Assembly (NCBI RefSeq): GCF_900770955.1
Contig: NZ_CAAGLX010000021.1
Span: 85,631 to 109,630, forward strand
Reading direction: 5' to 3'
Length of the DNA stretch: 24,000 nucleotides
Source: an uncultured Phascolarctobacterium sp.
Lineage (GTDB): Bacteria; Bacillota; Negativicutes; Acidaminococcales; Acidaminococcaceae
Position numbers and translations under genes: made by a program. Below, piece by piece: positions 2,977 to 21,466 of this stretch. The notes under the pieces are model-generated. The model was not told the DNA's origin. It was given only the letters and a program-made list of their open reading frames with translations, and searched no databases. Within the stretch, counting starts at the first letter, position 1. Each line of letters starts with the position of its first letter.

Positions 2977-4050
2977 GTGAACGCAGATTTTATCTCAGCA
3001 ATCCAGGAATTAGGAAAGGAAAAGGGTATTGACCCCGAGCTTTTGTTCCAGGCTGTTGATGACGCTTTGGTTGCTGCTTACAAGAAGAACACCGGCACAA
3101 ACCAGAATGTCCGTGTTGAAATGAATAAAGAAACAGGTGAAATCCATGTATATGCACAGCGCACTGTAGTTGAAGGTGAGGCTGACGGCATTAACGAGAT
3201 GACTCTGGAGGATGCTCAGGAAATCAATCCGCAGTATCTGGCAGGCGATATCGTAGAGGTAGAGGTTACTCCGAAAAACTTCGGTCGTATTGCTGCACAG
3301 AACGCTAAGCAGTTTGTTGTACAGCGTATCCGTGAGGCAGAGCGCGGACAGGTGTATGAACGCTTCCAAAGCCGTGCCAATGATATCGTTACCGGTATTA
3401 TCGAGCGCATGGAAAACCAAAACGTTTATATCGATTTGGGCAAGGTTGAGGCCGTACTGACTCCTAACGAGCAGATTCCCGGTGAAATCTACCAATACCA
3501 TGAGCGTATGAAAACCTATATTGTTGAGGTTAAGCGCACCAACAAGGGACCGCAGATTATGGTTTCCCGTACTCATCCCGGCCTGCTGAAGCGCCTGTTT
3601 GAGCTGGAGGTTCCGGAAATTCATGACGGCGTGGTTGAAATCAAATCCGTTGCCCGTGAGCCCGGTATGCGCTCCAAAATTTCCGTATATACCGCTGACA
3701 GCAATGTTGATCCGGTAGGTGCCTGCGTAGGCCATAAGGGCATGCGTGTGCAGACTATCGTTAACGAGCTGCGCGGTGAGAAGATTGATATTGTAAAATA
3801 CAGTGAAGATCCGGCACAATATGTTGCCAACGCTCTGAGCCCGGCAAAGGTTGTCAAGACAACCATTAACGAAGCAGATAAAATCTGCCGTGTTGTCGTA
3901 CCGGATTACCAGCTGTCCCTGGCTATCGGCAAGGAAGGCCAAAATGCCCGTCTGGCTGCTAAGCTGACCGGCTGGAAGATTGATATTAAGAGCGAAACTC
4001 AGGCTGCCGAAGAGGCTGCTGCTGAGCCTGCTCCCATGGAAGAAGCATGA
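2977..4050 (+). CDS. nusA: Transcription termination/antitermination factor NusA
   Basis: GTG start after AGGAGG. It has the NusA N-terminal, S1 and two KH regions ([27 protein letters not shown]) and the conserved position between rimP and ylxR. Confidence 0.95.
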
Positions 4051-9549: not shown

Positions 9550-10473
9550 ATGGAGATTATTACTTCTTTAGAACAACTGCATAAATTTTCCGCTCCCTGT
9601 GTGGTAGCATTGGGTACCTTTGACGGCCTGCACCGTGGTCATCTTGATGTAATAGAAACTGCACGGGAAAGGGCGCGTGAATGCAATTCCAAGCTGGCTG
9701 TCTTTACCTTCAGCAACCATCCCTATGAATGGATTCGTCCGGGTATGGTGCCGCCGGCGCTGATAACAGGCGCGCAAAAGCAGGAGCTTTTGCAGCAGCT
9801 TGGCGTGGACGTGCTGGTGGACATTCCCTTTAATCAGCAGGTGGCCGACCTGTCGCCGCAGGAATTCCTGCAGCGTCTGCAGCAGCTTGATTACAGATGT
9901 CTTGTAGTAGGCGCCAACTTTACCTATGGCTGCCGCGGACAGGGCACTGTCTATACGCTGGCTGCCTCTGCCAAAGCCATGGGCTTTGAGCTGATTGTGC
10001 GCGAGCTGGTAAGCAAGGGCGCAACTGTTATCAGCAGTACCGCTATCCGTCAGCTGATTGCTGCAGGCGAGGTGGCAGAGGCTGCCGACATGCTGGGGCG
10101 CAGCTACAGCATCAGCGGCATGGTGGCGCACGGCAACGAGCGTGGCAGACTGCTGGGATATCCTACAGCTAACATTGAGCTGGAGGCTGCCAATGTTGCG
10201 ATTCCTCTGGGGGGAGTGTATGCTGTGCGGGTACTGGTGAATGGCGCAAGCTATCACGGCATGGCTAATATTGGCTATAACCCGACCTTTGGCGATTTAG
10301 CCAAACCGCGTCTGGAAACGAATATTTTTGATTTTACCGGGGACCTTTACGGTAAGCAGCTCACAGTACAGTTTGTGCAGCGCATCCGCGGCGAAGTAAA
10401 ATTTGCCGGCATTGAACAGCTGAAGCAGCAGCTGGCGCAGGATAAGCATGACTGTGAAGCAGCATTGCGGTAA
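9550..10473 (+). CDS. ribF: Bifunctional riboflavin kinase / FAD synthetase
   Basis: N-terminal GTFDGLHRGH nucleotidyltransferase motif. The C-terminal riboflavin kinase region carries GYPTANI and NPTFG. Confidence 0.93.
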   Translation: MEIITSLEQLHKFSAPCVVALGTFDGLHRGHLDVIETARERARECNSKLAVFTFSNHPYEWIRPGMVPPALITGAQKQELLQQLGVDVLVDIPFNQQVADLSPQEFLQRLQQLDYRCLVVGANFTYGCRGQGTVYTLAASAKAMGFELIVRELVSKGATVISSTAIRQLIAAGEVAEAADMLGRSYSISGMVAHGNERGRLLGYPTANIELEAANVAIPLGGVYAVRVLVNGASYHGMANIGYNPTFGDLAKPRLETNIFDFTGDLYGKQLTVQFVQRIRGEVKFAGIEQLKQQLAQDKHDCEAALR

Positions 10474-10627: not shown

Positions 10628-10894
10628 ATGTTAACTAGCGAAGCTAAACAAGCAGTAATTCTGGCAAACGCACGTCATGAAGGTGACACCGGTTCTTCTG
10701 AGGTACAAATCGCAGTTCTGACCGAACGCATCAAATATTTGACCGAGCATCTGAAAGAGCACAAAAAAGACCATCATTCCCGTCGCGGCCTGTTGAAACT
10801 GGTAGGTAAACGTCGTGGCCTGCTGAACTACCTGGCTGGCAAAGACATCGAGCGCTATCGTGCAATCATTGCTAAACTGGGTATCCGTAAATAA
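10628..10894 (+). CDS. rpsO: 30S ribosomal protein S15
   Basis: AGGAGG RBS, 88 aa, with the signature [29 protein letters not shown]. Confidence 0.97.
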
Positions 10895-10912
10895 TCCGGT
10901 TTATGCTGAAAA

Positions 10913-10939
10913 GTCCGTCCGTAAGGGCGGGCTTTTTTT
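10913..10939 (+). terminator. Rho-independent terminator of rpsO
   Basis: GTCCGTCC-gtaa-GGGCGGGC forms 8 bp including two G-U pairs, followed directly by TTTTTTT. Confidence 0.85.
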
Positions 10940-11147
10940 GTGCTTGTTTTACTTTCCGGCAATTTATTTATTTTTTTGTTTAGTGAAGGTCAGATAGTCA
11001 CTTTGTTAAACCAAGGTTTAGAAATATCAATTTTTATACTTAGGGTTATCTTGACATTAGCCCCCAAGTTTGGAAGGTTAGAGATGCCTTCTATGTGCCT
11101 TACGAGTTTCATACCTAATAGCTCAAGAACCAGTTACACCACCGCTC

Positions 11148-11176
11148 TAGACTAAAGCCTAAAGCAGTGGTATAAT
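11148..11176 (+). promoter_or_regulatory. Candidate plus-strand promoter reading antisense into the small ORF and hammerhead region
   Basis: TAGACT (11148-11153), a 17-nt spacer ending in TGG, then TATAAT (11171-11176). A second TATAAT lies at 11182-11187. Confidence 0.35.
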
Positions 11177-11207
11177 AATAGTATAATGGTCTTAGGAACT
11201 CAGGTGC

Positions 11208-11339
11208 CTACTTGCAATCGCTAAAACATTCAACGATTATTATTGCCAAAACCGCACCCAGGCAAGATGCAGCAGCAATAACTTCATTGAAGAATAAAGC
11301 ATCCAGGTAGGTGCCGAGACCTATCAAGATGAATTCCAT
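11208..11339 (-). CDS. Hypothetical 43-aa hydrophobic peptide (below the ORF-track cutoff)
   Basis: My own translation is MEFILIGLGTYLDALFFNEVIAAASCLGAVLAIIIVECFSDCK*. GGAG lies 9 nt upstream of the ATG. There are two hydrophobic stretches. I recognise no homology, so the coding status is unproven. Confidence 0.3.
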   Translation of the reverse strand: MEFILIGLGTYLDALFFNEVIAAASCLGAVLAIIIVECFSDCK

Positions 11340-11388
11340 AGAAGTCATCTCCGTTCTTCCAAAGACGAGTGTATTTTAACTGAATGAA

Positions 11389-11451
11389 CCCCGTTTCGTC
11401 TTAATCTTCCAAGACTCATCAGCGCCGTTTATCGTTAATCGGCGGACAGGA
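11389..11451 (-). ncRNA. Type III hammerhead ribozyme (candidate)
   Basis: The minus strand reads uCCUGUC|CGCCG-auuaacgauaaa-CGGCG-CUGAUGA-GUCUU-ggaagauu-AAGAC-GAAAC-GGGG. It has a GUC cleavage triplet, a 5-bp stem I hairpin and an intact CUGAUGA box. Stem II is 5 bp with the G10.1-C11.1 pair, the GAAA box is intact, and stem III (ACGGGG/UCCUGU) closes with 6 pairs including two G-U. Confidence 0.7.
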
Positions 11452-11463
11452 AAAACTAGAATT

Positions 11464-11501
11464 ATGCCCCTTACTAGACAATAAAATCTAGCAAGGGGCA
11501 T
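11464..11501. other. Long hairpin immediately 5' (in minus sense) of the hammerhead
   Basis: ATGCCCCTT (11464-11472) pairs with AAGGGGCAT (11493-11501), with an inner CTAGA/TCTAG stem. U-rich sequence follows on the plus strand (TAAATTTATTT). On the minus strand a U5 run lies 8 nt away. It could terminate a plus-strand antisense RNA. Confidence 0.4.
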
Positions 11502-11710
11502 TAAATTTATTTGGACCTCCAAAACAGTGGCTAAAGTCAAACCACCGGGGGCGGAAACGCAACCCTAAAAAATATATTTTTATATATTTTCCTTCTGTCA
11601 AAAGTTACCTAAAATTTTCAGATAACTTATCAAAACAAAAATAATCGCGCCCGCTTTATTTATAGACGCGATTAATTGCTTATACAGAGAGAGCAATAGA
11701 ATTCCATCGT

Positions 11711-11760
11711 TATAATAAAAATAAGGATTCACTTCCGATTTACTTGCGAAGTGAATCCTT
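11711..11760 (-). terminator. Terminator of the HTH gene (bidirectional hairpin)
   Basis: A perfect 13-bp stem, AAGGATTCACTTC (11723-11735) with GAAGTGAATCCTT (11748-11760), abuts the stop codon. T-runs follow on both strands. Confidence 0.7.
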
Positions 11761-11959
11761 ATTTTTTGTTTGTTAAGCCTAAAATGTAATCCGTGGATGT
11801 GTTATGAAATTTAGCCAAGGCAATGAGTATATCTGTCGGTATATCACGCTCGCCTTTTTCATAGTTGCTGTAGACTCTTTGTGAGCAGTTAAGGATTTCA
11901 GCCATTTGTGTTTGCGTCATATCCTTGTCCTCACGTAAGTCGCGAATGCGCTGATACAT
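11759..11959 (-). CDS. XRE-family helix-turn-helix transcriptional regulator (66 aa)
   Basis: MYQRIRDLREDKDMTQTQMAEILNCSQRVYSNYEKGERDIPTDILIALAKFHNTSTDYILGL is a textbook HTH_3/Cro-C1 pattern. An alternative GTG start lies at 11968 (track). The gene is divergent from the four-gene operon. Confidence 0.85.
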   Translation of the reverse strand: MYQRIRDLREDKDMTQTQMAEILNCSQRVYSNYEKGERDIPTDILIALAKFHNTSTDYILGLTNKK

Positions 11960-12008
11960 TGTTATCACCCAATAACATTATAGAAAGAGATGGCACTTCA
12001 ACTTGCTA

Positions 12009-12029
12009 TTTAGCGCAAATTGCGCTAAA
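12009..12029. promoter_or_regulatory. Perfect 10-1-10 palindrome, candidate operator
   Basis: TTTAGCGCAA-A-TTGCGCTAAA lies 27 nt upstream (in minus-strand sense) of the minus-strand TATAAT at 11977-11982. That TATAAT would drive the HTH gene. Confidence 0.5.
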
Positions 12030-12043
12030 ATCAAAATAGAAAA

Positions 12044-12061
12044 GTATTAGCTTGCTAATAC
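12044..12061. promoter_or_regulatory. Second palindrome (8-2-8), candidate operator
   Basis: GTATTAGC-TT-GCTAATAC shares the TTAGC/GCTAA half-site with the first palindrome, but at a different spacing. Confidence 0.4.
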
Positions 12062-12094
12062 GCCAGGCAAAACACACTCGATGTGTGCTTTTGC

Positions 12095-12122
12095 TTGACT
12101 GGGGGGGACAACAGTGTATCAT
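12095..12122 (+). promoter_or_regulatory. Candidate promoter of the four-gene operon with a G7 tract in the spacer
   Basis: TTGACT (12095-12100), a 16-nt spacer beginning GGGGGGG (12101-12107), then TATCAT (12117-12122). A TATAAT follows at 12123-12128. Confidence 0.4.
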
Positions 12123-12182
12123 TATAATAAGTTATTGACAAATTTTTAATACATGAACAATTAACGGAGCTGACTTGGGAAA

Positions 12183-15100
12183 ATGAAGTTTATTAACAAT
12201 GTTAATGAAACATTAAGAGATGATATGGCCGCAGAAATGAAAAAGGGCAGTAAGCTGTCTATCGCTGCTGCCTATTTTTCTATCTATGCGTTTGAAGCGT
12301 TGCGCAAAGAACTGAGTAATATCGACGAATTGCGTTTTATTTTTACTGATCCTACATTTATTCAGAAGGAGAACAGCAAAAAGGAAAAGCGTGAGTTTTA
12401 TATTCCTAAATTAAAGCGCGAGCGTGGCATTTACGGTACGGAATTTGAAGTGAAGCTACGCAATGAATTGAACCAAAAGGCTATTGCCAGGGAATGTGCA
12501 AATTGGGTTAAGAAGAAGGTTATGTTTAAATCCAATGTAGGCAATAAGGATATTACGGATAAGTTTATTTTGCTGGATGACAAGGCATATTTTCCTGTTA
12601 ACGGCTTTACAACCGTTGATTTAGGCTGTGAGCAGGGTAATAACATGGGAACTAACATCGCGAAGGTTGCAAGCCCCATGTCGTTGACGCTGATAGAGCA
12701 GTTTGAAAAGCTCTGGCAGAATAATGAAGAGTTACAGGATGTAACTGACAAGGTAATAAGCAGTATCAGCTCTGCTTATAACGAAAATGCTCCGGAGTTT
12801 ATATATTTTGTGACGTTATATAATATTTTCCATGAATTTCTTGACGATATCAGCGAGGATGAACTGCCGAATGAGCGCACAGGCTTTAAAAACAGTAAAA
12901 TCTGGAGCATGCTCTTTAATTTTCAACGTGATGCAGCGCTTGGCATCATCAACAAGCTGGAAAAATATAATGGCTGTATTTTGGCAGACAGTGTAGGCTT
13001 GGGCAAAACCTTTACGGCTTTGGCTGTTATTAAATATTACGAGGGGCGCAATAAAAGTGTGCTTGTTTTGTGTCCGAAAAAGCTGGCAGACAACTGGAAT
13101 ACCTATCGTGCCAACTACAAAAATAATCCTATTGCTGCAGACCGTTTAGGTTACGATGTTTTGTATCACACGGATTTGCTGCGTAAGCATGGCTACAGCG
13201 GTTCCCTTGATTTAAGCAAGATTAACTGGAGCAATTATGATTTGGTCGTTATAGATGAATCGCATAATTTCCGTAACGGCGGTGCGTTTAGTGATGACGA
13301 AAAAGAAAATCGCTATACGGTGCTTATGAACAAGGTTATTCGCGAGGGTGTGCAGACAAAGGTGCTGATGCTTTCGGCTACGCCGGTAAATAACCGCTTT
13401 AATGATTTGAAAAATCAGCTGCAATTAGCCTATGAAGGAGATAGCAGCAAAATAAACGATAAGCTGGATACGAAAAGCTCGATTGAAGATATTTTCCGCA
13501 ATGCGCAGGCAGCATACAACCAGTGGTCGAAGCTGTTGCCGGAAGAGCGTACCTTGCAAAAGCTGTTGGAGCATCTGAGCTATGATTTCTTCACGCTTTT
13601 GGATTCTGTAACTATTGCGCGCTCGCGTAAGCATATTACCAAGTATTACGATACCAAAGATATCGGTAACTTTCCGGAGCGCAAAACGCCGCTGTCTTTC
13701 CGTCCTGCGTTGGTTACGGATGGCTCGGTAAATTACAGCGAGATTTTTGCCAAGTTGGATGAGCTGGAGCTTTCGGTGTATACGCCTACGGAGTTTATCC
13801 TGAACAGCCGTCAGCAAAAATATGCAGCACTTTTTGACGATAACAAGGTTAATACCGGTTTCACGCAGTCGAACCGTGAGCGCGGTATTCGCCGCTTAAT
13901 GGCGATAAATATTTTGAAGCGTATGGAAAGCTCGGTGTATTCCTTCAGGCTGACTGTTATAAGAGTACGGGCGAGAATCGCTGCAGTTTTAGATAAAATT
14001 TATCGCTATACACAGCACAGGCTCGCAAATGCACAGATTGAATCAGGTGCGGATATAGACACAACTGATTTTGATATGGAAGAGGAAAGCTTTACCGTAG
14101 GCAAAAAGGTGCCTATTTCGCTGGCAGATATGGATATTGTAAGCTGGGCAAATAGCCTGCAGCGTGACAAGGAGCGTTTGGATGAGCTGCTTGGCCTGGT
14201 GCAGGGCATAACGCCTGAGCAGGATAATAAGCTGCATGAGCTGCTGACGCTTATTGATAATAAAATTCAGCATCCTCTGAATGCAGGCAATAAGAAAATT
14301 ATCATCTTTACGGCTTTTACCGATACAGCACAGTATCTTTATGAGCATGTAAGTGCTTATGCCAAAGAAAAATTTGGCCTAGACACTGCTATGATTACCG
14401 GTACAGTTGATGGCAGGTCTACAATTCCTGAATTGAGATGTGATTTTAACACCGTGCTGACCTGCTTTGCGCCTTTGGCCAAGGATAAAGCGCTGTTGTT
14501 CCCGGAAGATAACAATGAGATAGATATTCTGATTGCGACAGATTGTATTTCCGAAGGCCAGAACCTGCAGGATTGCGATTATTTGGTTAATTACGATATT
14601 CACTGGAACCCGGTGCGTATAATCCAGCGCTTTGGGCGTATTGACCGTATTGGCAGCAAGAACGCTTATATTCAACTGGTCAATTTTTGGCCTGATGTTG
14701 ATTTAGATGAATACATAGATTTGAAAAGTCGCGTTGAAAGCCGTATGAAGGCGGTGGATTTGACAGCGACGGCAGATGACAACCTGCTGAGTAATAATGA
14801 AAAGCTGGATTTGCAATACCGCAAGCAACAGCTTAAGCAATTGCAAAAAGAGGTTGTTGATATCGAGGATATGGGTACAGGTATTTCCATCATGGATTTG
14901 GGCTTGAATGAATTCCGCCTGGATTTACTGGAATATATCAAGACGCATGGCGAGCTGGATAAAACACCCTTCGGCCTGCATGCCGTTGTACCTGCGAGTG
15001 AGGAATGTCCTCCGGGTGTAATTTACGTGCTGAAAAACTGCACGGATAACATAAATATAGACAGAAAAAATCTTCTGCATCCGTTTTACGCCGTATATAT

Positions 15101-15419
15101 TGGCGAGGATGGCGAGATTATCTGCAACCATCTGGCGCCGAAAAAGCTGCTGGACAAGCTGCGCTTTACCTGCCGTGGCAAGGACAAGCCTTTGACGGAT
15201 TTGTGCAATGAGTTTAACAAGGTGACGGATGACGGCAGAAATATGGGTGTTTATTCCCGGCTTTTGGAGGATGCTATTGCTTCCATAATCAACGTGAAGG
15301 ATGCAGACGATGTGGACAGCTTCCTGAGCGGTGAGGAAATCAGCTTCTTTGACAACAGTATTAAAGGACTGGATGATTTTGAACTGATTTGTTTCCTCGT
15401 TGTGCGGGGTGAGCAGTGA
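12183..15419 (+). CDS. SNF2-family helicase with N-terminal PLD-like domain lacking the catalytic His
   Basis: SNF2 motifs: ILADSVGLGKT (about 12979-13010), DLVVIDESHNFRN (DESH at 13254-13265), LMLSATPVNN, KIIIFTAFTDT, and ATDCISEGQNLQDCDYLVNYDIHWNPVRIIQRFGRIDRIGS. The N-terminus (LSIAAAYFSIYAFEAL..., TDKFILLD) has a PLD/HKD-like layout. Confidence 0.9.
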   Translation: MKFINNVNETLRDDMAAEMKKGSKLSIAAAYFSIYAFEALRKELSNIDELRFIFTDPTFIQKENSKKEKREFYIPKLKRERGIYGTEFEVKLRNELNQKAIARECANWVKKKVMFKSNVGNKDITDKFILLDDKAYFPVNGFTTVDLGCEQGNNMGTNIAKVASPMSLTLIEQFEKLWQNNEELQDVTDKVISSISSAYNENAPEFIYFVTLYNIFHEFLDDISEDELPNERTGFKNSKIWSMLFNFQRDAALGIINKLEKYNGCILADSVGLGKTFTALAVIKYYEGRNKSVLVLCPKKLADNWNTYRANYKNNPIAADRLGYDVLYHTDLLRKHGYSGSLDLSKINWSNYDLVVIDESHNFRNGGAFSDDEKENRYTVLMNKVIREGVQTKVLMLSATPVNNRFNDLKNQLQLAYEGDSSKINDKLDTKSSIEDIFRNAQAAYNQWSKLLPEERTLQKLLEHLSYDFFTLLDSVTIARSRKHITKYYDTKDIGNFPERKTPLSFRPALVTDGSVNYSEIFAKLDELELSVYTPTEFILNSRQQKYAALFDDNKVNTGFTQSNRERGIRRLMAINILKRMESSVYSFRLTVIRVRARIAAVLDKIYRYTQHRLANAQIESGADIDTTDFDMEEESFTVGKKVPISLADMDIVSWANSLQRDKERLDELLGLVQGITPEQDNKLHELLTLIDNKIQHPLNAGNKKIIIFTAFTDTAQYLYEHVSAYAKEKFGLDTAMITGTVDGRSTIPELRCDFNTVLTCFAPLAKDKALLFPEDNNEIDILIATDCISEGQNLQDCDYLVNYDIHWNPVRIIQRFGRIDRIGSKNAYIQLVNFWPDVDLDEYIDLKSRVESRMKAVDLTATADDNLLSNNEKLDLQYRKQQLKQLQKEVVDIEDMGTGISIMDLGLNEFRLDLLEYIKTHGELDKTPFGLHAVVPASEECPPGVIYVLKNCTDNINIDRKNLLHPFYAVYIGEDGEIICNHLAPKKLLDKLRFTCRGKDKPLTDLCNEFNKVTDDGRNMGVYSRLLEDAIASIINVKDADDVDSFLSGEEISFFDNSIKGLDDFELICFLVVRGEQ

Positions 15420-16030
15420 TGTTAGGCTTACCGCAGACTACAGAAGTTAAGAAGATTATCCCTAAACGTGCCTTATACAGCAAGTTTGAAATGAATACAG
15501 CGGAGCAGAAGGAGTTTGACGCAGCCATCAGGCAGATGAGCATTGTCAACGAAATTTCCTTGCGTACAATTCCTGCTTTGCAGAAAAAAGAAGAGAACAA
15601 AGCAATCTTTGTTCTTGCCGTACAGCTGAAGCAGGAGGGGTGCGCGGAAAGGCTTTTGCAAAGGCTGTGCAGGCTGATTGACCAGCGCTTGCTGTTAGCG
15701 CTTTGCTATGAAGATAAGCTGCAGCTGGCACTGTATTTCGATAACAGAATATTGCTCAATGAATTTATGCTTGCAAGCGAGCAGCAAGTGCACTTGCAAG
15801 GCACAAGCCTAAACGATATTTGGGAGCACTTAGCTCTGCAGGTGGCGCAATTAACGCCACGTGCAGGGCTTACACCTGCTTCTGTAATTGCCAACGCCGG
15901 CAGGCGGGCAGAAGCAGAAGCACAGATAGCAGCGCTGATGAAGAAAATGTTTGCGGAAAAGCAGGCACGCAAAAAACTGACCTTGCGTGAAGCAATAAAC
16001 AAGCTGAAAAAAGAACTGGAGGATTTATAA
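15416..16030 (+). CDS. Hypothetical protein, DUF4391-like (assignment from memory, unverified)
   Basis: The GTG at 15416 and ATG at 15419 overlap the upstream TGA (GTGATG). The 204-aa product has the N-terminal pattern LPQTTEVKKIIPKRALYSKF and a C-terminal charged coiled-coil-like tail (RRAEAEAQIAALMKKMFAEKQARKKLTLREAINKLKKELEDL). I see no catalytic motif. Confidence 0.6.
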   Translation: MMLGLPQTTEVKKIIPKRALYSKFEMNTAEQKEFDAAIRQMSIVNEISLRTIPALQKKEENKAIFVLAVQLKQEGCAERLLQRLCRLIDQRLLLALCYEDKLQLALYFDNRILLNEFMLASEQQVHLQGTSLNDIWEHLALQVAQLTPRAGLTPASVIANAGRRAEAEAQIAALMKKMFAEKQARKKLTLREAINKLKKELEDL

Positions 16031-17946
16031 TGATGGAACATCTCAACATGCAATCTATGGATAAGGTTGCAGCAAACGTAGCCAAGATAAGGGAGCTATT
16101 CCCTAATTGCGTAACGGAAATAATCAATAAAGAGGGCAAGCTGGAGCATGCCATTGATTTTGATATGCTGAAACAGGAGCTTAGTGACCATGTTGTAGAT
16201 GGTTTGCAGGAACGCTATCAGTTCACTTGGCCGGATAAACGCAAGGCTATTCTTGCTGCTAATGCGCCGATTAATAAGACCTTGCGCCCCTGCAGAGAGG
16301 AGAGCGTAGACTTCGATAATACGGAGAACCTTTATATTGAAGGCGATAATCTGGAAGTGCTCAAGCTGCTGCAGGAAACGTATTTGGGCAAGGTGAAGAT
16401 CATTTATATTGATCCGCCGTATAATACAGGTAAGGATTTTGTTTATAATGATGATTTTAAGCAAAGCCTAGATGAGTATGTTGAAAACAGCGGACAGTTA
16501 GATGATGATGGCAATCGTCTTGTAGCTAATACAGAAAGCAATGGTCGTTTTCATACTGATTGGCTTAATATGATGTATCCAAGGTTGAAGCTGGCGAAGG
16601 ATTTATTGAGTGAAGATGGTGTTATTTTTATTAGTATAGATTCTATTGAATGTTCAAATTTACGTAAAATATGTGATGAAATATTTGACGTAGAAAATTT
16701 TATATGTAATGCAATTTGGAGATCTTCAGATAATAGCAATAATGATGCAAAAAAATTCTCTAATGATTATAATTCAACACTAATATATAGTAAGAACGCT
16801 TTATGGCAACCTCGAAAACAAGAAGATCCTGAAAAAAGAAAACATTTTAAAAATCCGGATAATGATCCTAAAGGAGCATATTTTGATGGTAATCCATTAA
16901 ATTCACCTAACTACAGAGAAAACTTGAGATATAATATTGTTTCACCTTCTGGAAAGATAATATATCCACCCAAAAATGGTTGGAGATGGTCAAAAGAAAC
17001 TATGTTGGAAAAAATTCGTACAGGTGAAATAAGATTTAATAAAGATGAGAATAACATAAAACGTAGAACTTATCTTTGTGATATGAAAGGATTACCACCT
17101 TCAAATTTGTGGATAGATTTTACGAGAACTGGGCATAATCGGCAAGCTAAATATGAGTTATTAAGTATATTGCCAGAAGATGTATTTGATACTCCGAAAC
17201 CGGTTTTGTTAATAAAATACATATTGAAATTAGTAGACGATTCAAAAAATGCGATTGTTATGGATTTTTTTAGTGGATCAGCTACTACTGCTGATGCAGT
17301 AATGCAAATGAACAATGAGGATTCTGGCAAGAGAAAATATATTTTAGTACAATTACCTGAAAATCTTGATTATAGTTTAGTCCATGCTTCGAATGATGGT
17401 AAAAAGACAATAGAAAATGCAATTGCATTATGCGATAAACTTAAAAGAAAACATCTTCTAACAGAAATAGCGAAGGAGCGCATCCGTCGTGCCGGCCAAA
17501 AAATCAAAGACGAAAATCCGCTGACAACACAGGATTTGGATATTGGCTTCCGTGTTTTGAAATGCGACAGCAGCAACATGGAAGATGTGTACTTCACACC
17601 GAAGGAATACATGGATAAACAGCAGAATTTGTTTGTCGATAATATTAAAGCAGACCGTAGCGACGAGGATTTGCTGTTTGATGCTATGCTGAAGCTGGAT
17701 ACGCCGCTTTCCAGTAAAATCGAAAAAAGAAGCATTGCCGGCAAAACTGTTTACAATGTGGCACAAGGTCATTTAATGGCATGCTTTGACAAGGATGTGA
17801 CGGATGAGGTTATCACCGCCATTGCCAAAGAAATGCCAAGCTATTTTGTTATGCGTGACAGCTCGCAGGCAGATGACAGCGTTGCAATTAACTTTGAGCA
17901 GATTTTCAACACCTATAGTCCGCAAACTGTGAGGAGGGTGCTGTAA
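16030..17946 (+). CDS. mod: Type III restriction-modification Mod subunit (beta-class N6-adenine DNA methyltransferase predicted)
   Basis: The start overlaps the upstream stop (TAATG). The N-terminus ERYQFTWPDKRKAILAANAPINKTLRPCREESVDFDNTENLYIEGDNLEVLKLL is characteristic. Motif IV DPPY (16411-16422) precedes motif I DFFSGSATT (17263-17289), and a conserved C-terminal region follows. Confidence 0.9.
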   Translation: MMEHLNMQSMDKVAANVAKIRELFPNCVTEIINKEGKLEHAIDFDMLKQELSDHVVDGLQERYQFTWPDKRKAILAANAPINKTLRPCREESVDFDNTENLYIEGDNLEVLKLLQETYLGKVKIIYIDPPYNTGKDFVYNDDFKQSLDEYVENSGQLDDDGNRLVANTESNGRFHTDWLNMMYPRLKLAKDLLSEDGVIFISIDSIECSNLRKICDEIFDVENFICNAIWRSSDNSNNDAKKFSNDYNSTLIYSKNALWQPRKQEDPEKRKHFKNPDNDPKGAYFDGNPLNSPNYRENLRYNIVSPSGKIIYPPKNGWRWSKETMLEKIRTGEIRFNKDENNIKRRTYLCDMKGLPPSNLWIDFTRTGHNRQAKYELLSILPEDVFDTPKPVLLIKYILKLVDDSKNAIVMDFFSGSATTADAVMQMNNEDSGKRKYILVQLPENLDYSLVHASNDGKKTIENAIALCDKLKRKHLLTEIAKERIRRAGQKIKDENPLTTQDLDIGFRVLKCDSSNMEDVYFTPKEYMDKQQNLFVDNIKADRSDEDLLFDAMLKLDTPLSSKIEKRSIAGKTVYNVAQGHLMACFDKDVTDEVITAIAKEMPSYFVMRDSSQADDSVAINFEQIFNTYSPQTVRRVL

Positions 17947-20900
17947 TGAAGTTCAGTTTTAAAATTCAGCAGTACCAGACAGATGCTGTTAATGCAGTAG
18001 TGGATGTGTTCAAGGGACAGGTGCGCCCTGCGCAGGATAGCAGCTACTTTTTTGATCCGGGAAAACTGGTGCCGGTGAAAACAAAAAAAGCAAAGAATAC
18101 AAGTGGCTATAATTTATTTCAGCAGGAGCTGGATGAACAGGAAGCCAAGCAGGATATTATTCTTGGTTATGCCAACGCGCCTATCAAATTGGATAAAACT
18201 CAGCTTTTGGAGAATATCAAGCTTATTCAAGGCAATAACAATATAACTCCGTCTAAAGAGCTTATAGAAGGTCAAGGCAAATGCAGTCTTGATATCGAAA
18301 TGGAAACAGGTACAGGCAAAACCTATGTCTATATCAAAACCATGTTTGAGCTGAATAAGCAATATGGCTGGAACAAGTTTATTATCATCGTGCCTTCTGT
18401 CGCAATTCGTGAAGGTGTCAGGAAAAGCTTTGAAATGATGGAAGAGCATTTCATGAGCCAGTATGGCAAGAAAGTGCGTTATTTCATCTATGACAGTAAG
18501 AATTTGACGAAGATAGATGATTTTGCCAAAAGCAACGAAATCAACGTAATGATTATTAATAATCAAGCTTTTGCCAAGTCTTTGAATGAGGAAAAGAATA
18601 AAGAAGGCCGTGGCGGTGATAAGGGTGCATTGATTATCTACAGTGAACGTGATGATTTTGGTTCACGCAAGCCTATTGATGTTATCGCCAAAACTAATCC
18701 TATTTTGATTCTAGATGAACCGCAGAAGCTGAATGGTCCTGCTACGCAAAAAGCAATGAAGCGCTTTAATCCGCTTTTTAGCGTCAATTATTCTGCTACG
18801 CATAAACAGGAGCATAACGAAGTATACCGTTTAGATGCGCTTGATGCCTACAATCATAAGCTGGTCAAAAAGATAGAGGTTAAGGGTATTGAGGTTGTAA
18901 ATCTCAAAGGCATTGACGGTTATCTTTACTGCGACAGCTTTGTAACCAGCAAAGATAAAGCACCTATGGTAAAGCTGGAATTTGAACAGCAGCTGAAAAG
19001 CGGTACTGTCAAGCGTGTTTTACGCAATTGTTCCTATGGAGATAATCTGTACGAGCTTTCTAACGGCATGCTGCAGTACGAAGGCTATAAAATCAGTGAA
19101 ATTGATGCCAGCGATACCGGTTGCGTAAGATTTACTAACGGCGAAGAATTACATAGCGGTGAAGTAGCCAACAACAGTCAGGAAATGGCAAACTTACGTC
19201 GTGTGCAGATTCGTGAAACTATAAAATCTCACTTTGAAAAGGAAGAACAGCTTTTTGCGCAGGGCATCAAAACCTTATCGCTATTTTTTATTGATGAGGT
19301 TGCCAAGTACAGATTATATGACGAAGATGGCACACAAAAGCTGGGCGAATACGGTAAAATCTTCGAAGAAGAATATCAGAAAATATTTAGAGATAGGATG
19401 CAGGAGCTTTATCAAACGCCTTATGGTGAATATTTGAGAAATATGGCTGCAGATGTAAGCGTTGTACATACAGGCTACTTCAGTATTGATAAAAAAGGTC
19501 ATAGCGTTGACAGTAAATGCGAACGTGGCAAGGATACTTCTAACGATGAATCTGCCTATGATTTGATTATGCGTAACAAAGAAGCACTGTTAAGCTTTAA
19601 TAATCCTGTACGTTTTATTTTCTCTCACTCCGCATTGCGTGAAGGCTGGGATAACCCCAATGTTTTTCAAATCTGTACCCTGAAGCAGTCCAACAGCAAT
19701 GTCAATAAGCGTCAGGAGGTCGGTCGTGGTATGCGTATCTGTGTTAATCAGCAGGGTGAGCGCATGGACGAAAGCGTATGCGGAGCTAATGTGCATATTG
19801 TTAATAAGCTGACGGTTATTGCCAGCGAAAGCTATGCCGGTTTTGTCGACAGCTTGCAGGATGAAATCAAAAAAGCTCTGTATGAACGTCCTGAAAAGGT
19901 ATCTATAGAGTACTTCTTTGGCAGAGTAGTAAAGGTTGGCGATGAAACTTATAAAATTGAAGGCGAGCAAGCTCGTCAGATAGTGAAATATCTTGACAGA
20001 CATGATTATCTTGACGATGATGACAGAATCACCGAAAAATATAAGCAGGATGCTGCCAACGGTACTTTGGAGCCTGTGCAGGATAAGCTTAAGGATATTG
20101 AGCCTGCTGTACATGTGCTGATTAAGAGCCTGTATGATAATGATTCACTTAAGGATATGATTACTAACGGTAATCAGACAACCGTTGAAAACAAGCTCAA
20201 CAATAAGAATTTTGAAAAGCAGGAATTTCAGGAGCTGTGGAAGCGTATCAACCGTAAGTGCGCTTATACCGTAAAGCTTGATAGCAATGAGCTGATTGAC
20301 AAGGCTGTAGCAGCAATTGATGCTAAGCTGCAGGTTACTCAAACACTTTATACCTTGAGCGTCGGAGATCAGAAGAATACTATGCAGGCGCATGAATTAG
20401 AGCAAAAAACCAGCTTTGTATCACCCGCGCATACTACAAACGTATTGGATAATGCTCATGACAGCAGCTTGAAGTATGATTTGCTGCACGAGCTGACGCA
20501 GCGAACATCGCTGACACGTCGCACGGTTGCTGCTATTTTGAGCAGAATCAATATGATGAAGTACATGAAGTTCCGTGATAATCCGGAAGAGTTTATCAGT
20601 AAGGTTGCACGTCTGATTAATGAACAGAAGGCAGGCCTGATTGTAGAAGGCGTTACCTACAATACGACAAATGAAGTATTTGACAAAGAAATTTTTACGG
20701 CAGAATGTCATCGTGTAGCTTTGTCAAAAGTATTTCCTGCGCTGCGTGCTGTAACTGATTACGTTGTTACTGATGGCATAGCCGAGCAGAGTGTAGAGCG
20801 CAAATTTGTTGAAAATCTGGATAAAGCAGATGAAGTTGCAGTATATGCAAAGCTTCCGCGTGGATTTTACATCCCAACGCCTGTAGGTAAATATTCGCCG

Positions 20901-21113
20901 GACTGGGCAATTGCTTTCAAAGAGGGTAAAATTAAGTACGTATATTTTATTGCTGAAACCAAAGGAACAAATGAAAGTACGGAACTGAAATCTATGGAGC
21001 AGGCAAAAATTAAATGTGCCGAGAAGCTTTTTGAAAAGCTTTCCAACGGCGAAGTGCATTACGGTCAGGTAAAGGATTACAAGAGCCTGATGGATATTGT
21101 ACTGGATAAATAA
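17946..21113 (+). CDS. res: Type III restriction enzyme Res subunit (SF2 helicase plus C-terminal PD-(D/E)xK nuclease)
   Basis: The start overlaps the mod stop (TAATG). Motifs: ETGTGKT Walker A (about 18300-18326), DEPQ (18714-18725), SATH, ALREGWDNPNVF and QEVGRGMRI. The nuclease motif is PDW (D at 20901-20903) ... AETKG (E at 20955-20957, K at 20961-20963). Confidence 0.9.
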   Translation: MKFSFKIQQYQTDAVNAVVDVFKGQVRPAQDSSYFFDPGKLVPVKTKKAKNTSGYNLFQQELDEQEAKQDIILGYANAPIKLDKTQLLENIKLIQGNNNITPSKELIEGQGKCSLDIEMETGTGKTYVYIKTMFELNKQYGWNKFIIIVPSVAIREGVRKSFEMMEEHFMSQYGKKVRYFIYDSKNLTKIDDFAKSNEINVMIINNQAFAKSLNEEKNKEGRGGDKGALIIYSERDDFGSRKPIDVIAKTNPILILDEPQKLNGPATQKAMKRFNPLFSVNYSATHKQEHNEVYRLDALDAYNHKLVKKIEVKGIEVVNLKGIDGYLYCDSFVTSKDKAPMVKLEFEQQLKSGTVKRVLRNCSYGDNLYELSNGMLQYEGYKISEIDASDTGCVRFTNGEELHSGEVANNSQEMANLRRVQIRETIKSHFEKEEQLFAQGIKTLSLFFIDEVAKYRLYDEDGTQKLGEYGKIFEEEYQKIFRDRMQELYQTPYGEYLRNMAADVSVVHTGYFSIDKKGHSVDSKCERGKDTSNDESAYDLIMRNKEALLSFNNPVRFIFSHSALREGWDNPNVFQICTLKQSNSNVNKRQEVGRGMRICVNQQGERMDESVCGANVHIVNKLTVIASESYAGFVDSLQDEIKKALYERPEKVSIEYFFGRVVKVGDETYKIEGEQARQIVKYLDRHDYLDDDDRITEKYKQDAANGTLEPVQDKLKDIEPAVHVLIKSLYDNDSLKDMITNGNQTTVENKLNNKNFEKQEFQELWKRINRKCAYTVKLDSNELIDKAVAAIDAKLQVTQTLYTLSVGDQKNTMQAHELEQKTSFVSPAHTTNVLDNAHDSSLKYDLLHELTQRTSLTRRTVAAILSRINMMKYMKFRDNPEEFISKVARLINEQKAGLIVEGVTYNTTNEVFDKEIFTAECHRVALSKVFPALRAVTDYVVTDGIAEQSVERKFVENLDKADEVAVYAKLPRGFYIPTPVGKYSPDWAIAFKEGKIKYVYFIAETKGTNESTELKSMEQAKIKCAEKLFEKLSNGEVHYGQVKDYKSLMDIVLDK

Positions 21114-21258: not shown

Positions 21259-21280
21259 TTTTTTAATAGCAAACCATTAA

Positions 21281-21434
21281 GATAGAGGCGCGGAAAGCAT
21301 GAGTAGGTTGTGGAGCGGGAGCTGAGAAGCATCACAAAAGGGCTAACGCCGAAGTGCAATGGCAGCCGTGTCGTTGTGCTGGGCCGTCAGTGAAAGCTGC
21401 CGGACTGTCGCTGCATCTGCAGCGGAGGGCTATC
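21281..21434 (+). promoter_or_regulatory. Lysine riboswitch (L-box) aptamer
   Basis: The conserved L-box blocks occur in order: GAUAGAGGCGCG, GAGUAGG, GCCGAAG, ACUGUC and GGAGGGCUAUC. P1 forms from GAUAG...CUAUC. The element lies upstream of lysine-biosynthesis genes. Confidence 0.8.
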
Positions 21435-21466
21435 TCGGCTATGGGTGTGAATATTATTTAGCATGC

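Follow-up and report, generated by a model that had tools for sequence, protein, structure and literature searches.

The window, the whole stretch of 24,000 nucleotides (nt) that was analysed, comes from an uncultured Phascolarctobacterium sp., and the element in question is a hammerhead ribozyme on its minus strand, in a variable, phage-derived cassette between rpsO and the gene of an XRE regulator. Read along the minus strand, the cassette consists of a terminator, a promoter-like motif, a hairpin, the hammerhead, an interval of 36 nt, a Shine-Dalgarno sequence, the gene of a hydrophobic peptide of 43 amino acids (aa) and a near-invariant 3' region (Table 1). The interpretation that we consider probable, from the sequences compared, is that this is a real type III hammerhead in a phage-derived cassette that a minority of Phascolarctobacterium strains carry downstream of rpsO, that its cut would uncouple the mRNA of the peptide and that cleavage itself would be what is selected.

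The minus strand reads UUCCUGUC / CGCCG-AUUAACGAUAAA-CGGCG / CUGAUGA / GUCUU-GGAAGAUU-AAGAC / GAAAC / GGGG. The original prediction had seen in it a type III hammerhead with all invariant core positions, three helices able to form and a predicted cut after C17, and closer analysis bears out all three points. The conserved core positions C3 U4 G5 A6 N7 G8 A9 and G12 A13 A14 are present as CUGAUGA and GAAA, without a mismatch to the consensus of the Rfam model RF00008 or of a covariance model of our own (R1, described below), and the descriptor search agrees with both models on the identity. The cleavage triplet is a GUC (11447-11445), whose position agrees with the cut as predicted, and U16.1 (11446) pairs with A15.1 (11394), closing helix III. 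Helix I has 5 bp (CGCCG/CGGCG), helix II has 5-7 bp and opens with G10.1-C11.1, and helix III has 6 bp, two of them G-U; the minimum-free-energy fold of 71 nt gives the same three-helix junction, the descriptor agrees with it and covariation in relatives supports it. The topology is that of type III, with loops capping the first two helices and none on helix III, and the order GUC, helix I hairpin, CUGAUGA, helix II hairpin, GAAA.

Table 1. Features of the window, and ribozyme sites in related loci (L numbers), with the evidence or remarks belonging to each.
Feature	Position	Strand	Evidence or remark
ribF	9550-10473	plus	
rpsO and terminator	10628-10894	plus	
Variable phage-derived cassette (~750 bp)	10947..11694	minus	between rpsO terminator and XRE terminator
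Near-invariant region 3' of the peptide gene (about 230-260 nt)	10947..11207	minus	alignments A2, A4; RNAalifold pair table
Gene of the 43-aa hydrophobic peptide (MEFILIGLGTYLDALFFNEVIAAASCLGAVLAIIIVECFSDCK)	11208..11339	minus	Shine-Dalgarno GGAG 11352-11349, 9 nt ahead of AUG
UCGUCUUUG, predicted to pair with Shine-Dalgarno and first AUG (CGGAGAUGA, 11353-11345)	11360..11368	minus	fold of 3' cleavage product 11444-11310
Type III hammerhead ribozyme	11389..11451	minus	core sequence, RF00008, custom model R1, shuffles, homologous alleles (L247, L253, L220, others)
Helix III, 3' strand	11393-11389	minus	
GAAA core	11397-11394	minus	
Helix II with loop II GGAAGAUU	11415-11398	minus	
CUGAUGA core	11422-11416	minus	
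Helix I including 12-nt loop I (AUUAACGAUAAA)	11444-11423	minus	
C17	11445	minus	predicted cut between 11445 and 11444
Helix III, 5' strand	11450-11446	minus	
16-bp hairpin (AUGCCCCUUGCUAGA...UCUAGUAAGGGGCAU) directly upstream of the ribozyme	11464..11501	minus	terminator-like scan; U-run 8 nt further
Promoter-like stretch (putative)	11563..11601	minus	TTGACA 11601-11596, then A/T-rich AAAATATATAAAAATATATTTTTTAGGG
Intrinsic terminator at the cassette's upstream end	11632..11673	minus	AAUCGCG...CGCGAUU, then U-run; kept in related elements (alignments A2, A6)
Intrinsic terminator toward XRE	11766-11717	minus	
C-protein-like XRE regulator, 66 aa, divergent	11959-11759	minus	
Defence island	12183-21113	plus	HKD+Snf2 helicase (PADLOC C3a139), DUF4391, type III Mod, type III Res
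A6a allele-1 hammerheads in related loci	L216:2261-2328; L217:1509-1576; L229:2810-2877; L230:798-865; L253:1291-1358 and 3040-3107; L254:1784-1851		
Twister-P5 sites in related loci	L216:2805-2894; L217:2807-2894; L230:1322-1410; L254:2306-2394; L255:284-372		

The search with the Rfam hammerhead models that had been proposed together with the original prediction turned out as expected only in part. In a permissive scan of 11330-11520 (a 191-nt search), RF00008 (Hammerhead_3) matches 11452-11388 of the minus strand over its full length (model positions 1-54) and significantly (37.6 bits, E 4.9e-7), but the score stays below the curated gathering threshold of 48.5 bits; for this reason the hammerhead is missing from the scan of the whole window at gathering thresholds, which returns a lysine riboswitch only. 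We infer that the 12-nt loop I and the G-U pairs of helix III are what lowers the score. On the same model, canonical members of the subfamily to which the element belongs reach 48.4-53.7 bits, which makes the subfamily an ordinary Hammerhead_3, and the close relatives of the window copy reach 40.7-42.6 bits; at its gathering score, RF00008 overlooks real members having a long loop I.

The convincing evidence is found in a subfamily-specific model and in homologous loci, rather than in the Rfam score. The covariance model R1, which was built from 31 distinct type III hammerheads of phages and genomes (alignment A3) with the window left out, gives the window hammerhead 55.9 bits (E about 1e-13) and finds no second match in the window. 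Within A3, the covariation signal is strong, as helix I is paired in 100% of cases, 3 of 3 aligned pairs are changed on both sides and the covariation score is reached by none of 500 shuffles; once the window and its relatives are added, 93.9% of the cells are paired and 10 of the 15 pairs are changed on both sides. A descriptor requiring the consensus core, G10.1-C11.1, A15.1-U16.1, an NUH triplet and at least 4 pairs in every helix has the hammerhead site as its sole match in the window and no match in 1000 dinucleotide shuffles of the 24 kb, searched on both strands. The shuffles and the E value of R1 thus uphold the earlier statement that such a match would hardly arise by chance.

Downstream of the ribozyme, the exact 43-aa product is called on 15 contigs, and 18 homologues of the peptide (60-100% identity) share an invariant N-terminal half; where the synonymous divergence (dS) is 0.5-1.5, the median ratio of non-synonymous to synonymous divergence (dN/dS) is 0.18. 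By this record of conservation, the peptide gene is a real and conserved one. Searches of Pfam, PHROGs, NCBIfam and PADLOC gave the peptide no family match. Exact-protein look-ups of a 69-aa form of the XRE protein and of a 46-aa form of the peptide found no records, and, since ATG-started forms of 66 aa and 43 aa are on record, both starts were revised accordingly. Another open reading frame (ORF), of 54 aa (11540-11376, minus strand), runs across the ribozyme and was rejected as coding: it has no Shine-Dalgarno sequence, starts with TTG and has its frame broken in L253.

Loci of the same species are 99-100% identical and hold no covariation information, so that variation was taken from the DNA around eight homologues of the peptide and from one metagenome match (L247). 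Every homologue of the peptide gene that was examined has a ribozyme of a self-cleaving class upstream, be it hammerhead allele 2, hammerhead allele 1 or twister-P5. L247 also has allele 2, which is that of the window, and L253 has it in two copies. Compared with the window, 3-4 of 62 positions are changed in these copies, each of them in loop I or, preserving the pair, in helix III (U-G to C-G at 16.3/15.3 and U-G to U-A at 16.6/15.6), and the synonymous divergence of the peptide gene adjoining the two L253 copies is about 0.86-0.88. In L220-L227 and L229, allele 1 lies ahead of the peptide gene, and L216, L217, L228, L230, L253 and L254 have it at a more upstream position; its helix I is wholly different yet fully paired (GGAUGC/GCAUCC), with a compensatory GGGUGC/GCACCC in L253. 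Many of its copies carry a one-base core insertion, A6a (CUGAAUGA), a variant for which low activity has been reported (PMC3088659); its recurrence in diverged elements, together with the compensatory change of helix I in L253, suggests that it is maintained rather than decaying. Furthermore, the core of L225 is changed by A9G (CUGAUGG) and L217 has an A-C mismatch.

Twister-P5 (RF02684, 35.2-40.7 bits against a gathering score of 37.6) is found in L216, L217, L230, L254 and L255, where it comes after an 81-aa gene or, in L217, after a 165-aa gene; L228, by sequence reading, has a leader near-identical to the twister-P5 leaders, with no match in the Rfam scan. The order in L247 is 81-aa gene, hairpin, hammerhead, peptide gene, conserved 3' region and a giant protein with the fold of an RNA-dependent RNA polymerase (RdRP), and that in L216 and L254 is 81-aa gene, twister-P5, peptide gene, 3' region and giant protein. 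Judged by this gene order, two unrelated ribozyme classes fill one orthologous intergenic slot, and their exchange suggests that self-cleavage itself, and not a particular fold, is the selected property. At least five different architectures keep the unit of ribozyme, peptide gene and 3' region unbroken, and conservation of the ribozyme far exceeds that of synonymous sites. Four of the relatives (L216, L217, L230 and L254) carry hammerhead, small gene, twister and peptide gene in series, and the window has a single ribozyme and no twister. A tandem duplication beside rpsO in L253:1291-3830 brings the hammerheads there to four and the 43-aa genes to two; its repeat unit consists of hammerhead allele 1, a 59-aa gene, hammerhead allele 2 and the peptide gene. 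Phage-like neighbours in the relatives comprise a PHROG of HNH/homing endonucleases, a PHROG without assigned function and the giant protein, which matches PF05183 at 33 bits (cutoff 23.8).

The region 3' of the peptide gene is present in all related elements and near-invariant, although the adjoining coding sequence has a dS of 0.5-1.5. It holds a hairpin of ~20 bp (11175-11134) with compensatory changes and with G-U pairs that are valid on the minus (sense) strand only; an Rfam scan of 10900-11340 returned only terminator-like noise, and an RNA, an arm of an att site or a promoter region are the candidate roles. On the plus strand, the same region has a strong sigma-70-like site (TAGACT-17-TGnTATAAT, 11148-11176) and a second TATAAT (11182-11187), conserved in all relatives. 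This promoter-like site aims antisense into the 43-aa gene and overlaps the conserved sense-strand hairpin, and, since the G-U pairs of the latter hold on the sense strand only, the conservation of the site is explained without an antisense RNA. At the other end of the peptide gene, the predicted pairing of UCGUCUUUG with CGGAGAUGA, partly retained in L247, might form a hairpin controlling translation; this is speculative, as is the predicted UUUUUCC/GGAAGAA pairing that could compete with helix III.

The window element is, by its signature, a type III hammerhead of a phage-associated subfamily, whose marks are a helix II of 5 bp and a loop II of 8 nt, conserved and with AUU at its end; the loop II of the window, GGAAGAUU, is that of the viral members L050, L131 and L138. 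Scanning viral contigs for the core and helix II (CTGATGAGTCTT-N(4-14)-AAGACGAAAC) gave at least 120 loci (L001-L120), and the viral matches listed are mostly of type I, with helix II unchanged and the 8-nt loop II almost so, a minority being of type III. Many of the type I copies among them begin directly after a TAA stop codon. A pattern specific to type III found 34 viral and 39 genome loci, the latter including many from Patescibacteria and Bacillota, with three or four copies on some contigs; the window's own genome was not among the matches of the genome-contig scan. In L176 there are four model matches, of which three flank single genes. In about half of the members of the subfamily, an ORF that has a Shine-Dalgarno sequence follows within 150 nt; this comes from a crude survey with rough ORF calling and serves as background only. 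Many type III hammerheads of Patescibacteria (candidate phyla radiation, CPR; L147-L182) have a long helix II, number up to four per 8 kb (L182) and often stand about 20-40 nt 5' of an ATG. In soil and freshwater metagenomes (L236-L239, L243-L245, L249, L252), type II hammerheads that have the same helix I stem end 10-25 nt ahead of a Shine-Dalgarno sequence and start codon, which are again ribozymes immediately 5' of genes.

Regarding the chromosomal setting, the cassette is piecewise homologous to the phage-like elements described above, of which it is a shortened version keeping the promoter motif, hairpin, ribozyme, peptide gene and 3' region, and in this way the phage or mobile context that had been expected for a bacterial hammerhead is confirmed; a BLAST search of phage and plasmid collections with 10940-12180 matched nothing. 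In 20 related loci, both flanks are there and the stretch 10947-11694 is missing or has been replaced, and the cassette occurs at 99.3-100% identity on only about 15 contigs, always at the locus of the window; the source names of the small peptide are Phascolarctobacterium, and many of the contigs carrying it are from human gut metagenomes. The XRE protein is present in 3570 collection blocks. There are strains that have the same island of XRE and restriction-modification (RM) genes without the cassette, and strains without the island that have related cassettes. The hammerhead was also considered as a part of the XRE/RM operon, which was rejected: two terminators lie in between (11766-11717 and 11673-11632) and the strain distribution is independent, so that the ribozyme stands outside the defence operon. 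As to the placement given in the original prediction, between a defence operon's regulator and a small hydrophobic ORF, the ORF is real, encodes 43 aa and starts at 11339; the ribozyme does not belong to the unit formed by island and regulator. The spot downstream of rpsO (10895-12182 in the window; L186-L205 and L220-L229) is a hypervariable hotspot in Phascolarctobacterium, which holds, depending on the strain, DUF4143/AAA_14 ATPase genes, a Y1 transposase fragment, the XRE and type III RM island, BNR/TctC genes or ribozyme cassettes. Beyond the island, where the core chromosome resumes, the lysine riboswitch (RF00168, 92.3 bits, 21275-21440, plus strand) lies upstream of the next gene cluster.

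Upstream of the ribozyme, about 110 nt away from it, the cassette transcript probably begins at the promoter-like stretch. An A/T-rich motif (about AAATTTATAAAATTTTT, followed by ...GGGG) is tandemly repeated three to four times in L216:1700-1960, L217:900-1100 and L230:210-450, where it precedes the small-gene operon of the phage-like relatives, and one copy is left in the window (11563-11590, minus strand); these repeats may act as promoters, conceivably ones that the RdRP-fold polymerase of the element itself uses. The hairpin that follows has homologues in L247, L217, L228 and L253, with a compensatory change from G-C to A-U in L253, and in the relatives it sits after the 81-aa or 59-aa gene, a place that leads us to read it as probably stabilising the 3' end of the upstream RNA or weakly terminating it.

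Putting these elements together, transcription would start at the cassette's own promoter-like motif, and the ribozyme, as expected from its class, would fold co-transcriptionally and cut after C17. The upstream product would then end in the stable hairpin and a 2',3'-cyclic phosphate, and the downstream peptide mRNA would carry a 5'-OH, with the compact body of the ribozyme as its 5' end and the Shine-Dalgarno sequence and 43-aa gene 36 nt after it. Such a cut would separate the peptide mRNA from the upstream RNA and set its 5' end, and plausibly its stability or translation. Several observations weigh against this interpretation. With regard to the ribozyme, the RF00008 score is lower than the gathering score, the fold energy of the isolated element is unexceptional (z -0.58), and helix III has its two G-U pairs and, in the predicted fold, the competing UUUUUCC/GGAAGAA pairing. 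Loop I (AUUAACGAUAAA, 12 nt) is unlike that of most subfamily members, and a tertiary contact or pseudoknot between loops I and II is needed for fast cleavage at physiological Mg2+; inspection of the two loops by eye found no convincing Watson-Crick complementarity or pseudoknot between them. With regard to the context, the putative promoter is a consensus-like motif, some allele-1 copies have core variants that reduce activity (the A6a insertion and A9G), and in relatives of the L220 type the ribozyme is separated from the peptide gene by a bidirectional terminator, which makes a strict reading as a 5' untranslated region (UTR) weaker. Finally, the cassette of the window is a truncated remnant without the upstream genes, and processing may have ceased to matter here.

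This last point is the core of the best-surviving alternative, according to which the ribozyme is a hammerhead by descent only, untranscribed or inconsequential in a truncated remnant, and kept only through the recent arrival of the cassette. The cassette is rare (15 contigs for the exact peptide against 3570 collection blocks for XRE), the identity of 99.3-100% among its carriers means that selection has had no time to become visible, the phage-like operon has lost its upstream genes here, and the core is damaged in some allele-1 copies (the CUGAUGG of L225 and the A-C mismatch of L217). Nonetheless, the core in the window is a perfect consensus, the combination of ribozyme, peptide gene and 3' region has stayed whole across the different architectures with the ribozyme conserved far beyond synonymous sites, and A6a co-occurs with a compensatory change in helix I, suggesting continued selection even on variants; a vestigial ribozyme is for us an unlikely explanation.

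A different alternative gives the peptide itself the leading part, as a membrane effector resembling a type I toxin or of phage origin, in an addiction or defence cassette beside the RM island, which would be silenced by sequestration of the Shine-Dalgarno sequence and by antisense transcription and activated or tuned by the cleavage of the ribozyme. The peptide is indeed small, hydrophobic and conserved, with a charged C-terminus, the module outlasts the loss of the rest of the element, the predicted hairpin would sequester both Shine-Dalgarno sequence and AUG, the conserved promoter-like site at 11148-11176 of the plus strand points antisense into the gene, and the bidirectional terminator at L220-type loci would suit an antisense RNA. 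However, the peptide matches no toxin, holin or defence family in any of the four collections searched, and the promoter-like site lies inside a hairpin that its G-U pairs show to be read on the sense strand, which accounts for its conservation with no need of an antisense RNA, so that we see a gated toxin as very unlikely. As for a chance resemblance or a piece of the coding ORF 11540-11376, which the low RF00008 score and the 54-aa TTG-started frame across the site might suggest, it is effectively refuted by the homologues, given the shuffles without a match, the R1 E value of about 1e-13, the compensatory changes in homologous ribozymes and the breaking of that frame in L253 by length differences of 1 nt and 4 nt.

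Going further than selection on cleavage ahead of the peptide gene, the unit of selection could be the three-part module as a whole, made of a self-cleaving ribozyme of any class, the 43-aa gene and an ultra-conserved 3' RNA of ~230 nt, in which cleavage would license or limit a toxic or phage-excluding peptide; this extension we hold to be improbable. If it were true, the locus would be a ribozyme-processed cassette of the type I-toxin-like or superinfection-exclusion kind in a defence hotspot, the module would persist alone after the loss of the remaining phage-like element, and bacterial hammerhead and twister ribozymes would have a defined physiological role. For the thousands of bacterial and phage ribozymes of the hammerhead, twister and related classes, the only published hint of a role is that different classes share gene neighbourhoods. 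The locus is an unusually clean natural experiment, with one small gene behind a hammerhead (in two alleles) or a twister-P5, and with carrier and non-carrier strains, in a common gut genus, and swapping or inactivating the ribozyme before one short gene could test the effect of cleavage on the stability or translation of the mRNA.

Among known systems, the type I toxin-antitoxin pairs (fst/RNAII, txpA/RatA, bsrG/SR4) are alike in their small hydrophobic peptide, their structured leader and their persistence as prophage-derived remnants, and also in a possible antisense promoter at the 3' end, putative as seen in the window, and they differ in having no sequence relationship to the window peptide. 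To our knowledge, no type I toxin-antitoxin system processes its mRNA by a self-cleaving ribozyme. Ribozymes of 5' UTRs that act on expression, such as glmS and the haloviral HHphage hammerhead, which lies 13 nt upstream of a helicase start (PMC3088659), share with the window, by sequence, an RNA of self-cleaving class tens of nt upstream of a start codon, and the predicted mRNA with a 5'-OH, which may fare differently from its precursor. Unlike glmS, the window ribozyme has no ligand-sensing domain, and ribozyme-dependent translation has been described in RNA viruses (bioRxiv 10.1101/2024.05.16.594327), whose eukaryotic cap-independent mechanism is inapplicable to bacteria.

The closest comparison is that with the type III hammerheads of phages and prophages (RF00008; Perreault et al. 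2011, PMC3088659), which have the same catalytic core, topology and GUC triplet. In bacteria, hammerheads occur in clusters with genes of prophages and on either side of single genes within polycistronic RNAs, and all three topologies, as well as core variants such as A6a, have been published for bacteria and phages (PMC3088659); likewise, the ribozymes described here are intergenic in phage-like polycistronic sets, the relatives have several of them flanking small genes, and A6a recurs in allele 1. The window copy differs from RF00008 in its sub-threshold score (37.6 against 48.5 bits), its 12-nt loop I and its G-U-rich helix III, and from the published hammerheads in standing alone in a truncated chromosomal cassette by rpsO and a type III RM island, with no intact prophage; in the literature searched, no paper names both hammerhead and Phascolarctobacterium. 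The proposed processing role would match, by analogy, what has been proposed for ribozymes in polycistronic phage transcripts (PMC3088659, PMC6765202). That hammerhead and twister share gene neighbourhoods has been published as well (PMC3088659, PMC6765202), and a twister-P5 in the same slot upstream of the 43-aa gene is an actual instance of the two classes being interchangeable in context. The published association (PMC6765202), however, concerns gene families generally, whereas here the swap takes place at an orthologous position between the same two genes; this kind of ribozyme is itself known, and what the locus adds is a well-defined system, with a class swap at an orthologous slot before one short conserved gene and with strains that have or lack the cassette.

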